Shown: positions 833 through 3,265 of the stretch, one piece after another
Numbering within the stretch: the first letter of the stretch is position 1
Layout of the letters: each line of letters begins with the position of its first letter
DNA from: a virus
Virus record (IMG/VR): IMGVR_UViG_3300021335_000004
Length of the DNA stretch: 64,000 bases
Reading direction: 5' to 3' (one strand)
Program-made: the position numbers and the translations under genes
The notes under the pieces: generated by a model
Databases searched by the model: none
The model's input: the letters and a program-made list of their open reading frames with translations, nothing else
Told to the model about the DNA's origin: nothing

Positions 833-861
833 TTGACAGATAATCAACATTTTTGTATACT
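833..861 (+). promoter_or_regulatory. sigma70-type promoter (rightward; likely drives the bS21/tmRNA operon)
   Basis: TTGACA-17 bp-TATACT. Confidence 0.8.
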
Positions 862-945: not shown

Positions 946-1197
946 ATGAATTATAAACTAGTTGGATTCTATAAAAATGAACATAATCGTACATACATTA
1001 GTGCATTATTTGATTTAATTAAAAAACGTCACCCCTCTATTACACAATCAGAAATATATGACTATCAGTCACAAAAAGCAATGGACTTAAGTATTAAACT
1101 TTTTCCTTGCGTACTGGTATTTAAAAATGATACTCTACATAAGAAGTTAGAGTCTAAACTAACATTAAAAGAATCATTACAAAAGTTGGGATTATAA
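946..1197 (+). CDS. hypothetical protein, possible degenerate thioredoxin-like fold
   Basis: 83 aa; 'IKLFPCVLVFKND' resembles the Trx cis-Pro strand, but there is no CxxC. Confidence 0.5.
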   Translation: MNYKLVGFYKNEHNRTYISALFDLIKKRHPSITQSEIYDYQSQKAMDLSIKLFPCVLVFKNDTLHKKLESKLTLKESLQKLGL

Positions 1198-1394
1198 TGT
1201 ACATAAAAGTAAGAAATAATGATGTAAGCAAAGCTTATAAAGCATTAAGTAGAAAACTTAATACTGAAGGTATTTTTAAAAAATTAAAAGAAAAACGATT
1301 TCATCAGACTAAAGGTGAAAAAAGAAGATTAAAACATAAAGAAGCTGTAGCAAGAATAAGAAGAATGGAACGTAAAAAAGAAGAAGAAAATTAA
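1197..1394 (+). CDS. rpsU: 30S ribosomal protein bS21
   Basis: 65 aa basic protein 'IKVRNNDVSKAYKALSRKLNTEGIFKKLKEKRFHQTKGEKRRLKHKEA' matches the bS21 pattern. Confidence 0.9.
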   Translation: MYIKVRNNDVSKAYKALSRKLNTEGIFKKLKEKRFHQTKGEKRRLKHKEAVARIRRMERKKEEEN

Positions 1395-1395
1395 T

Positions 1396-1716
1396 GTGAC
1401 AGATACTTTAAAAAGCAGTATACAAAAAGATTCTGAAGGATTTCATATACTGGTTGAAACAGAGGACATAAATTTTTCTGAATTTAAGAAAGCTAAAATA
1501 TTGTATTATATAGTAGAAATACACAGCATGAAATCAAGTGATATAGGAATCATGGCTGACGAAATAGATGGTGTTCAACACCCTATTAAATTTGATTCTT
1601 ATTCAAAAGCTAAAGTGTCTGCTTCTAAACTACAAGAACAATTAGGAGAAGAATCTCACTGGTTTACTAAGATTATTTCAAAAGAAAAAGATATTGTTTC
1701 GTCTGAGGAGCAGTAG
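1396..1716 (+). CDS. hypothetical protein (3' end overlaps tmRNA acceptor piece)
   Basis: 106 aa ORF, GTG start right after rpsU. Confidence 0.6.
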   Translation: MTDTLKSSIQKDSEGFHILVETEDINFSEFKKAKILYYIVEIHSMKSSDIGIMADEIDGVQHPIKFDSYSKAKVSASKLQEQLGEESHWFTKIISKEKDIVSSEEQ

Positions 1717-1772
1717 AATAAACGGACTGGACGCGGGGGCAGTACCCGCCGCCTCCACCATAAGGACACTAA

Positions 1773-1961
1773 ATGGAAATTATTTGGCATATACTATTAA
1801 CAGCTTGTATGAATTCTGAGTGTAGAACTCAAGATGTTCAGTGGTTTGATAATAAAAACACGTGTGAAGCAACAAAAAAACTTTACGAAGAGATTCCTCT
1901 AGATGGAAATTGGACAAGTGTTAAGTATATTTGTAAACCAAAAGGCTCAGTGTCTTTATGA
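1773..1961 (+). CDS. small 4-Cys protein encoded inside the tmRNA intervening segment
   Basis: 62 aa ORF with TAAGGA SD immediately after CCA, hydrophobic N-terminus, 4 Cys; stop ends 2 nt before tmRNA G1. Confidence 0.7.
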   Translation: MEIIWHILLTACMNSECRTQDVQWFDNKNTCEATKKLYEEIPLDGNWTSVKYICKPKGSVSL

Positions 1962-2082
1962 TGGGGGCGAAATAGGATCGACAGACGTAGTAAAAACTAA
2001 ACCGAGAAACAGGTGCGCAAGCGACCTTAACCGCAAGAAAACAACAATTGCAAATGATAATTTCGCAATCGAGGATTACCGC

Positions 2083-2132
2083 TTAGCGGCATAATCTCAC
2101 GGGGCGGCCACTGCCTAGCAACAGAAAGTGGC
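2083..2132 (+). repeat. direct repeat copy 1 (tmRNA tag end LAA-stop plus 3' structure)
   Basis: ttagcggcataatctcacggggcggccactgcctagcaacagaaagtggc. Confidence 0.9.
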
Positions 2133-2151
2133 ATTTTTAAAGGAGGTACAA

Positions 2152-3228
2152 ATGGCGCCAAGAAATCATAAGTCCTGGTTAACAAAACCAAAAGTAGAAG
2201 CTATTAGTAGTGAAATTTATAATAGTTTTGATATTTACAAGCAAGAACAAGAAGATATTTTTTCAAAAGTTTGGGTTCCTGTTTGTCATATGTCAGAGAT
2301 GCCAAATGAAGGCAACTTCAGAACATCATCCATTGCTGGAGTTTCCATTATTGTTTATAATTTCAAGGATGAAGAAGTTAGAGCGTATAAGAACTATGAT
2401 ATTAAACAGGTATCTGGTACTTTTGCTGCTCCTATAGTAACTTCAGAACCTAGGTTACATTGTGAAGTAAAACATGGCGGTATGGTATGGGTAACACTAG
2501 ATCCTAATCCTACACAGAGTGTTGAAGAATGGACAGCAGGAGCTTTTGATTGTATTGCTGATGCTATTGACACAGAAGAAATGGAAGTATTCCATTATCA
2601 CAAAGCTGTGATTGATACAAACTATAAACTGTGGCATGATACTAACTCAGAGTTCTACCACGATTTTATGCATTATTTTAATAGAGTGTCAGGATTTAAT
2701 GATGAATATTTCGCTAGAAAGAATATTCCTTTTGATAATGGTCACGTTAATGTGTCTAGCTTTACTGTTAACTATGAAGAGTATGACGGATTTGAAGATC
2801 GCGGGGAACTATCTTTTCCCAATCTGCCGCCCAACCAGTGGTACATGGTCGATCTCTTCCCAGGATATAACTTCAACCTTCGTGGTTCCGCCTATCGTTC
2901 AGACTCAGTAACGCCTCTTGGACCTAATAAGGTGCTTATTGAATTTAGAGGATATGGATTAAAGAAAGATACACCAGAAGAAAGACAAACAAGAATCAAA
3001 CACCACAACTCTATTTGGGGACCCTTCGGTCGCAACCTACATGAAGACCTTATTGGTGTTGCTGGTCAAGGTACTACAATGAGAGAGGGTACCGAATCTA
3101 GGAACATTCTACACGGACGTCATGAAAACAGTACAATTCATGACGAAGTTGGCATGCGTCATTATTATGCAGAATGGAGCAAGTGGATGGGGTTAGATGC
3201 GAGTAGGCCATGTCAATTAGCGGCATAG
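2152..3228 (+). CDS. ring-hydroxylating oxygenase alpha-subunit-like protein lacking the Rieske cluster; C-terminal LAA
   Basis: AGGAGG SD before ATG 2152; 'EQEDIFSKVWVPVCHMSEMPNEGNF' N-terminus and 'NYKLWHDTNSEFYHDFMH...EDL' mononuclear-Fe motif; no CxH...CxxH. Confidence 0.85.
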   Translation: MAPRNHKSWLTKPKVEAISSEIYNSFDIYKQEQEDIFSKVWVPVCHMSEMPNEGNFRTSSIAGVSIIVYNFKDEEVRAYKNYDIKQVSGTFAAPIVTSEPRLHCEVKHGGMVWVTLDPNPTQSVEEWTAGAFDCIADAIDTEEMEVFHYHKAVIDTNYKLWHDTNSEFYHDFMHYFNRVSGFNDEYFARKNIPFDNGHVNVSSFTVNYEEYDGFEDRGELSFPNLPPNQWYMVDLFPGYNFNLRGSAYRSDSVTPLGPNKVLIEFRGYGLKKDTPEERQTRIKHHNSIWGPFGRNLHEDLIGVAGQGTTMREGTESRNILHGRHENSTIHDEVGMRHYYAEWSKWMGLDASRPCQLAA

Positions 3229-3265
3229 TCTCACGGGGCGGGTACTGCCTAGCAACAGAAGTACC
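3217..3265 (+). repeat. direct repeat copy 2 of the tmRNA 3' segment
   Basis: ttagcggcatagtctcacggggcgggtactgcctagcaacagaagtacc; stem ggtact/agtacc replaces gccact/agtggc. Confidence 0.9.

Follow-up and report, generated by a model that had tools for sequence, protein, structure and literature searches.

A gene for a conserved 62-amino-acid protein nested in the intervening segment of a putative two-piece phage tmRNA

Introduction

Keiler, Shapiro and Williams are said to have described, in 2000, the circularly permuted, two-piece transfer-messenger RNA (tmRNA) of Alphaproteobacteria. In two-piece tmRNAs, the intervening segment (IVS) between the pieces is regarded as a short linker to be thrown away. 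Here, we describe a locus in a 64,000-nucleotide (nt) stretch of phage DNA (IMG/VR record IMGVR_UViG_3300021335_000004; "the window" hereafter denotes this whole stretch), in which the IVS of an alpha-type tmRNA holds an open reading frame (ORF) of 62 amino acids (aa), ORF62. The locus resembles the alphaproteobacterial two-piece tmRNA in the order of acceptor piece, IVS and coding piece, in the T-loop GGCAGUA, in the G3-U70 pair, in the encoded CCA, in a tag of the form ANDN...LAA, and in the P2 helices that join both pieces. Unlike the IVS of bacterial chromosomes with the identical 32-nt acceptor motif, which is 6 to 31 nt long, the IVS of the window measures 202 nt, is closed by a stem and encodes a protein under selection.

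One transcript can yield both a protein and a stable RNA, as in the dual-function or messenger-derived stable RNAs SgrS/SgrT and RNAIII/hld and in the tRNAs of rRNA and T4 tRNA operons; in these, the two functions overlap or adjoin. The window differs from them in that its coding part would be the discarded loop between the halves of one RNA. Moreover, unlike in SgrS/SgrT-type RNAs, the Shine-Dalgarno (SD) sequence, last codons and stop of ORF62 are shared with the processing hairpin.

Among marine phages, two-piece tmRNAs are described for the OM43 phage Melnitz and for pelagimyophages in the retrieved passages of Buchholz et al. 2022 (PMC9004378), and the passages of that paper on tmRNA make no mention of coding spacers. 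Melnitz resembles the window in carrying an alpha-type permuted ssrA in a marine phage, and its gene 85, directly upstream of the SsrA gene 86, belongs to the ORF62 family. ORF62 is thus outside the tmRNA in Melnitz, whereas it is inside the tmRNA in the window. A 2025 tmRNA survey of 97,179 sequences describes, in the excerpts available, homing-endonuclease genes in T-loop group I introns; for permuted IVSs, the same excerpts list a tRNA-Ala and a repeat element as inserts and report no protein gene (PMC11915505). As in intron-interrupted tmRNA genes, the segment that would be lost on maturation in the window carries another gene. Unlike the self-splicing group I introns in the T-loop, this segment would be removed by tRNA-type end processing, without splicing. 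A full-text search of the literature, with sources retrieved in part, returned no paper on a protein gene in the IVS of a permuted tmRNA.

We assign a probability of roughly 0.75 to the reading that the window encodes a functional permuted alpha-type tmRNA of an uncultured marine phage and that the loop of the IVS hairpin contains a bona fide 62-aa gene.

Results and Discussion

The window encodes a permuted alpha-type tmRNA

A first-pass annotation of the window, made from its letters alone, had proposed a permuted alpha-type tmRNA, and Rfam matches bear this out, with the elements where they had been placed. Positions 1696 to 2135 match RF04321 (105.1 bits, cut-off 47) and RF01849 (104.1 bits, cut-off 50), each covering its model from end to end; the alignment to RF04321 begins at 1696, and that to RF01849 extends back to 1659. 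All features of the locus lie on the + strand. The acceptor piece (1696..1760 in the Rfam alignment) comprises the 5′ strands of P2, a T-arm (GCGGG/GGCAGTA/CCCGC, 1733-1749), the acceptor 3′ strand CGCCTCC (1750-1756), the discriminator A1757 and an encoded CCA (1758-1760). It precedes the coding piece (1963..2135), which is the permuted order: the T-arm, the acceptor 3′ strand and CCA are all upstream of G1 (1963) and of the tag frame. The coding piece opens with the acceptor 5′ strand GGGGGCG (1963-1969), which provides the G3-U70 pair. It continues with the tag ANDNFAIEDYRLAA (2050-2091; frame GCA...GCA, then TAA at 2092-2094) and ends in a terminal hairpin (2107-2132) followed by a U run. 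A 63-aa ORF at 1903-2094 was rejected as a gene, being the tag frame that is merely open upstream. In the predicted fold of the 440-nt precursor, the acceptor stem, ACCA/UGAU and the IVS-closing stem are stacked as one interrupted helix (z = −3.55).

The same RNA recurs in related phage loci. Both Rfam cut-offs are passed by 20/20 relatives tested (21/21 with the window locus). Pairs were counted in an alignment of 20 diverged loci with an ORF in the IVS, in which 99.6% of the cells of the whole structure are paired. The two strands of the acceptor stem flank the ORF at a distance of about 200 nt from each other and are 100% paired in these loci, with compensatory changes in three of seven pairs (for example, AU:10/GC:10 and GC:10/CG:6/AU:4). 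The T-arm is likewise 100% paired, with compensatory changes in three of five pairs, and the alanine identity pair G3-U70 is U-G in 20/20 relatives. The structure scores 0.313 for covariation; shuffles that leave phylogenetic signal in score 0.106 (0/500 reach 0.313), and slid partners score at most 0.055. Canonical tags of the form AN(D/E/A)N...(L/I)AA are found in 19/20 loci and range from ADENLALAA to 29-residue tags ending in ALAA. The sequence hallmarks, all of which are kept, suggest that the tmRNA of the window is functional.

In the two closest relatives of the window (L123 and L124, ~2690-2906; ORF62 92% identical), the Rfam scores are 72 to 88 bits and the usual GCAAAYGA resume motif is missing; read by eye, the tag may be ASILSTKREVTSSSAQALAAIA.

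ORF62 is conserved as a protein while located in the IVS

The IVS (1761..1962) is a loop closed by a stem in sequence and in folds. Its sole long forward ORF is ORF62 (1773..1961; stop TGA at 1959-1961), which begins 12 nt after CCA and ends 1 nt (T1962) before G1. The 62-aa protein gene of the first-pass annotation is therefore at the expected place, and it is conserved. An identical copy of ORF62 and its flanks is on a 64.5-kb IMG/VR contig. ORF62 belongs to a family of small Uroviricota proteins: a protein search with it returned 57 clusters that are 52 to 92% identical and almost always 62 aa long, and 289 IMG/VR loci carry the gene. We examined its placement in 80 loci fetched with ORF62, plus Melnitz. 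The ORF-in-IVS arrangement of the window is found in 36 of these 80 loci; the stop is 1 nt before G1 in all 36, and the distance from CCA to ATG is 12 to 21 nt across the IVS-resident copies. Because it recurs in 36/80 fetched loci, the nested arrangement is not due to chance.

Four cysteines of the protein are invariant or nearly so. The invariant residues of the alignment are W5, T10, C12, C17, Q20-F25 (QDVQWF), C31, P42, D44, W47 and Y52, separated by variable positions. The first-pass annotation had named a ratio of nonsynonymous to synonymous substitution rates (dN/dS) below 1 as a check on this ORF. Among 25 distinct ORF62 copies, all within a tmRNA IVS, median dN/dS and median dS are 0.21 and 0.94, respectively, and the variable columns are distributed over the three codon positions as 35/30/55. 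Invariant residues are encoded by two to four synonymous codons in the IVS copies. In three groups consisting exclusively of IVS-resident copies, the pooled dN/dS is 0.16, 0.16 and 0.22, which indicates that the protein was under selection during the time that its gene was in the spacer. Judged by these substitution patterns, ORF62 is a genuine gene under purifying selection.

The function of the protein is not revealed by its relatives. Neither Pfam nor PHROG has a match to ORF62. AlphaFold2 predicts a beta-hairpin, a helix and a strand (beta-beta-alpha-beta fold) at a predicted local distance difference test score (pLDDT) of 91.8. A Foldseek search of the PDB with this model returned nothing at E ≤ 0.001, the best small match being 8g9s_A (70 aa; template modeling score 0.74, E = 0.87), and the fold matches in BFVD are uncharacterized small phage proteins only. 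The best Z in a wide VIA-align search is 5.7 (topoisomerase subdomains, 8g9s_A and MzrA). Because this value lies among those of common small alpha/beta arrangements, no function is drawn from it. The Atlas neighbors of ORF62 are viral hypothetical proteins, in clusters that are 92 to 100% viral. No nuclease domain, as expected of a homing-endonuclease cargo, was found in ORF62 by Pfam, PHROG or fold comparison (Z ≤ 5.7). The hydrophobic N-terminus (MEIIWHILLTAC) was considered as a signal or lipoprotein peptide, and this idea was dropped because the model puts it in the beta-hairpin.

ORF62 is fitted into the hairpin that closes the IVS

The first-pass annotation had described a 10-bp stem that closes the IVS and has the SD sequence of ORF62 in its 5′ arm. 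The 5′ arm (1761..1772) does contain the SD sequence AAGGA (1762-1766), 6 nt before the ATG. The 10-bp stem (1761-1770 with 1949-1958) appears in the minimum-energy and centroid folds of both the IVS alone and the 440-nt precursor. The 3′ arm (1947..1958) consists of the last four codons of ORF62, TCA GTG TCT TTA (S V S L). It is followed by a UGAU leader (1959..1962), which occupies positions −4 to −1 relative to the presumed RNase P cleavage site and whose UGA is the ORF62 stop. This sharing extends to IVS-ORF loci, in which the 3′ arm encodes S-V/M-S-L and the leader UGA doubles as the stop. The stem has 10 to 13 bp in these loci (12 to 13 bp in the relatives of the window) and a stability of −12 to −18 kcal/mol. 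Over 12 pairs and 20 loci, it is 99.2% paired. It covaries at two pairs: one (UA:8, UG:7, CG:5) is coupled to Met/Val at ORF62 residue 60, and the other (UA:19, GC:1) is coupled to a synonymous TCA-to-TCC change.

Codons 61 and 62 of ORF62 are TCT TTA in 36/36 IVS copies, even though Ser and Leu are both six-fold degenerate and the other Leu codons there use four synonyms. In contrast, more than 15 different tails are found among the 44 copies that lie outside an IVS (for example, SKSA, STGT, SEPA and NASAV). The invariant codons inside the IVS, together with the varied tails outside it, indicate that the tail of ORF62 is held by the RNA.

The part of the first-pass description that does not stand is the tie between the stem and this ORF. 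We surveyed 104 distinct IVSs of at least 40 nt from all fetched phage loci, 41 ORF-bearing and 63 ORF-less. The terminal duplex is stabler than 95% of shuffles in 101/104 of them, including 60/63 of those without an ORF. TGAT directly precedes G1 in 64 of 86 distinct IVSs from a sample unbiased as to ORF (described below), whether or not they hold an ORF. The closing stem and the UGAU leader are general traits of the spacers of phage-borne alpha-type tmRNAs. The notion that the stem evolved for ORF62 was rejected, since ORF-less spacers have it too. What sets ORF-bearing spacers apart is the SD sequence: an SD-like 4-mer is in the first 22 nt of 34/41 ORF-bearing IVSs versus 15/63 ORF-less ones. 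The usual 5′ arm of phage IVSs is TAAACACA or TAAGCACA; that of the window is TAAGGACA, which creates the SD sequence. ORF62 is fitted into a pre-existing IVS hairpin, with the SD sequence in the 5′ arm, the tail in the 3′ arm and the stop in the leader.

The spacer is a recurrent cargo slot in phages

To place the window among other loci, we retrieved 120 IMG/VR loci solely by their acceptor motif, so that the presence of an ORF had no part in their selection. A two-piece tmRNA could be parsed in 114 of them, yielding 86 distinct IVSs with a median length of 96 nt (range, 24 to 489 nt). We regarded an IVS as ORF-filled if an ATG-initiated ORF of at least 29 codons occupied at least 60% of it. 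By this definition, 15 of the 86 IVSs (17%) are ORF-filled. The coding IVS reported in the first-pass annotation is therefore real, and it is not unique. The search for other ORFs swapped into the IVS, which that annotation had recommended, revealed six cargo families in all: ORF62, a 76-78-aa hydrophobic protein, hydrophobic peptides of 44 aa and of 37 aa, a 33/41-aa pair, and a 131/144-aa HNH-like protein. The HNH-like assignment of the last (L035 and L101) is borderline, at 21.4 and 21.1 bits to PF01844 against a cut-off of 21.4. In 9/15 ORF-filled IVSs, from four of the six families (ORF62, 44 aa, 37 aa and HNH-like), the cargo ORF reads through the 3′ arm and stops at the leader UGA.

Cargo other than ORF62 in a stem-closed spacer was seen in L011, L051, L069 and L072 (IVS of 260 to 267 nt), in L006, L091, L099, L107 and L117 (177 nt), in L021 and L158 (122 nt), in L010 and L047, and in L035 and L101 (464 and 489 nt). 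The 33/41-aa cargo pair ends in YEDLC.

The IVS of the Melnitz tmRNA (L201, MZ577097.1; 2780-2963) is about 142 nt long and has an SD sequence GGAG and an ATG at 2799. The ORF that starts there is different from ORF62, runs through G1 into the coding piece and is not annotated. Locus tags 87 and 88, which adjoin the tmRNA (tag 86), are absent from the listed features of the record.

In cells, the picture differs. We scanned one genome per species for an identical 32-nt acceptor motif, and the matches were mostly in alphaproteobacterial metagenome-assembled genomes (MAGs). At the G+C-rich motif loci (0.55 to 0.69; many on chromosome-size contigs), the IVS is 6 to 12 nt long in 15 loci and 26 to 31 nt long in three, and none of these IVSs has an ORF above the 25-codon reporting threshold. 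The statement of the first-pass annotation that the IVS is normally short and non-coding thus holds for bacterial chromosomes with the identical acceptor motif. We had also considered that long IVSs might be general to alpha-type tmRNAs, and dropped this idea in view of the 6 to 31 nt of bacterial chromosomes. Motif loci with 36 to 51% G+C have IVSs of 44 to 260 nt, mostly closed by a stem, and two of them hold ORFs. By their composition and cargo, the MAG loci of lowest G+C look like the phage loci, and they may lie on phage contigs that were mis-binned. Cells thus have a short, non-coding IVS, and the expanded, clamped form is a trait of phages.

Four low-G+C contigs with long, phage-like, stem-closed IVSs (L205, L237, L211 and L230) are in MAGs labeled Methanobacteriota, Cellvibrionaceae, Marinovum and Flavobacteriales, and one of the four carries the 76-aa cargo. 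Mis-binning of these contigs, if true, would bear on reports of "archaeal" permuted tmRNAs.

The ORF62 family moves around the tmRNA

The first-pass annotation, which had placed ORF62 in the IVS, needs to be corrected in a further respect: the family also has free-standing members, as well as members that immediately precede or follow the tmRNA. Besides the 36 loci with ORF62 in the IVS, the gene is directly upstream of the acceptor piece in eight (including cultured Melnitz), directly downstream of the coding piece in two to three, and behind the tmRNA and an msmA-like gene in two; in 32 loci, there is no tmRNA within about 2.5 kb. Altogether, 49/80 copies are in, directly before, directly after, or no more than 1.7 kb from a tmRNA. 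The gene is outside an IVS in 44/80 loci, where it has the same invariant residues in unrelated RNA contexts. On a tree of codons 1 to 58, with the tail left out, location in the IVS requires six changes by parsimony, at least three of which are forced by well-supported branches; the tree of so short a gene has limited resolution and gives no direction of the moves.

In one free-standing clade (L144, L161, L162, L166, L167, L195 and L199), a poly-G tract is located just upstream of position 2501 and consists of ATG, then seven to nine G, then CT or TA. The tract, whose G run differs in length from one contig to the next, may be prone to slippage or may be an artifact of assembly. In another locus (L155, 2122-2372), three tRNA genes are directly upstream of the IVS-ORF tmRNA, which is therefore part of a tRNA cluster and is not behind a bS21 gene.

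How one precursor might serve as both messenger and tmRNA

We infer from the arrangement of the locus that the tmRNA pieces and ORF62 are co-transcribed, that the precursor is cleaved at 1760 and 1963, and that ORF62 is translated in this context. We propose the following sequence of events. One early polycistronic RNA, starting at a promoter at 833-861, would carry the gene of ribosomal protein bS21, a 106-aa ORF (ORF106) and the pre-tmRNA. Most translation of ORF62 would take place on the nascent precursor, at a time when the 3′ arm of the closing stem has yet to be transcribed. After the last ribosome has left, the stem would close, burying the SD sequence and aligning the acceptor strands across 200 nt. 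Host tRNA-processing enzymes would then cut the RNA, RNase P on the 5′ side of G1963 and 3′ maturation at A1760. This cleavage would free the two tmRNA pieces, and the IVS would be discarded or briefly kept. The clamp would make the spacer tolerant of cargo, which would explain the other small or HNH-like genes there in related phages.

Several observations weigh against a functional tmRNA with a translated gene in its IVS. The SD sequence is enclosed by a stem with a stability of −12 to −18 kcal/mol, which could leave little or no translation once the RNA has folded. Covariation of the closing stem rests on its two variable pairs only, and because the 3′ arm is also coding and the 5′ arm is also the SD sequence, their conservation may partly have those causes. 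Beyond the phylogenetic signal left in the shuffles, the IMG/VR loci are metagenomic and mutually related. SmpB (PF01668) has no match on the 64.5-kb IMG/VR contig, which CheckV estimates to be 32% complete; the phage tmRNA would therefore depend on the SmpB of the host. Finally, ARAGORN, which the first-pass annotation had named as a check, calls no tmRNA in the window. The program finds only 63 of 119 related loci, and the 56 that it misses include all six with spacers longer than 216 nt. Because about half of the related loci are missed as well, we discount its silence as evidence of absence.

In the main alternative, the excised 202-nt IVS may itself be a stable mini-mRNA, with a 12-nt leader that includes the SD sequence, the full ORF, and UGA plus 1 nt. 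Its paired ends would protect it from exonucleases and from 5′-end-dependent RNase E, and a ribosome reading the last four codons would open the stem and free the SD sequence for the next ribosome, so that ORF62 expression would be tied to tmRNA maturation. Such a fragment is suggested by the fact that the SD sequence, ORF and stop are wholly within the excised segment in 36/36 IVS loci, with the stop always 1 nt before G1, by the read-through to the leader UGA in 9/15 ORF-filled IVSs, and by the terminal stem in both folds of the isolated IVS. We nevertheless regard it as unlikely. In the excised fragment, the SD sequence is permanently paired, which should hinder initiation, and the fold of the IVS alone is marginally stabler than shuffles (z = −1.76). 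Furthermore, excision would cut the Melnitz IVS ORF, which extends past G1 into the mature coding piece; the mini-mRNA model therefore cannot be general.

A broader version of this idea takes the spacer to be a dedicated, exchangeable expression slot. The tRNA-processing enzymes would release a clamped mini-mRNA that ends 1 nt past the stop, synthesis of the cargo would hinge on tmRNA maturation, the parent tmRNA might tag the cargo, and ORF62 would be a partner or modulator of phage trans-translation. The linkage of 49/80 ORF62 copies to a tmRNA hints at such a partnership, and the conjecture as a whole strikes us as rather doubtful.

In contrast to both the nascent-precursor reading and the mini-mRNA, the nesting could be mere compact packing. 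ORF62 would then be a passenger, and the tmRNA pieces and the ORF would be separate transcription units, with the coding piece transcribed, for example, from a promoter inside or after ORF62. The mobility of the family before, inside, after and away from the tmRNA is in keeping with this view, as is a weak promoter-like match inside ORF62 (1904-1931, 9/12). However, matches of this quality occur at background level (16 sites against 11.3 expected), and the hexamers are on codons that vary among relatives. The short distances that are fixed around every IVS copy, from CCA to the ATG and from the stop to G1, leave no room for separate signals, and the terminal stem pairs sequences that flank ORF62 on both sides. 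We therefore consider a passenger improbable.

That ORF62 is untranslated, being conserved for the sequence or structure of the IVS RNA or being an accidental open frame, is very improbable. The sequestered SD sequence and the lack of a Pfam or PHROG family or an informative fold are compatible with it, but the dN/dS of 0.16 to 0.22 in IVS copies with variation mostly at third codon positions, the occurrence of the same protein free-standing in 44/80 loci, and the confident AlphaFold fold all speak against it. We dismiss a dead tmRNA remnant split by insertion of the ORF, despite the ARAGORN result and the missing SmpB gene, because of the compensatory acceptor-stem changes across the ORF, the invariant G3-U70 pair, the canonical tags in 19/20 loci, and Rfam scores far above the cut-offs in 21/21.

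If ORF62 is translated from this locus, one RNA would have to be both read by ribosomes and cut by RNase P and 3′-end enzymes. Instead of a throw-away linker, the IVS in marine phages is widely a stem-clamped loop with protein genes. This raises the questions of how translation and maturation are ordered, how a cargo of 200 to 500 nt is tolerated, and how small genes are shuffled through the slot. It also implies that ORFs inside tmRNAs may go unannotated, as in the Melnitz record.

Genomic context of the locus

The window is phage DNA with a G+C content of about 32% and encodes a family A DNA polymerase, an NAD-dependent ligase, a DnaB-like helicase, NrdA, an SbcC-like protein and a J-like central tail fiber. 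Upstream of the tmRNA, a sigma-70-like promoter (TTGACA-17-TATACT; 833..861, + strand) matches 11/12 positions, by consensus match only. It is followed on the + strand by an 83-aa ORF (ORF83), by the bS21 gene (1197..1394; PF01165, E = 1.7e−13) and by ORF106 (1396..1716), which has no match in Pfam or PHROG. The stop of ORF106 (1714-1716) is inside the 5′ part of the acceptor piece, so that the two overlap by about 20 nt. No terminator-like site was found on the + strand between the promoter and the tmRNA. The promoter is likely the start of an operon of ORF83, bS21, ORF106 and the tmRNA, to judge from this gene order, and positions 833-2135 are possibly a translation-related early operon.

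A glutamine riboswitch aptamer (RF01739; 53 and 60 bits) is located directly after the tmRNA in two other loci (L201, 3101-3149, and L192, 1903-1956), as published for Melnitz. The window has no RF01739 match.

In the window, the tmRNA is followed by a gene similar to those of Rieske oxygenase alpha subunits (msmA-like; 2152..3228, + strand), whose DNA is 74% identical to the "methanesulfonate monooxygenase" gene of Puniceispirillum phage HMO-2011. This gene is bracketed by two copies of a 44-nt repeat (2083..2126 and 3217-3260, + strand; 93% identity) that comprises the 3′ end of the tmRNA, namely, the LAA codons, the stop and the 3′ hairpin. The msmA-like gene ends in ...CQLAA-stop because its last codons come from the second repeat copy and are thus tag-derived. 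Relative to the first copy, the hairpin of the second carries compensatory changes (GCCACT/AGTGGC against GGTACT/AGTACC). The msmA-like gene looks like a cassette inserted at the 3′ end of the tmRNA. We also observed a 13-nt perfect inverted repeat between 1738-1750, in the T-loop and T-arm, and 3237-3249, in the second copy of the tmRNA 3′ end; the first copy, at 2103-2115, differs from this inverted repeat at three positions.

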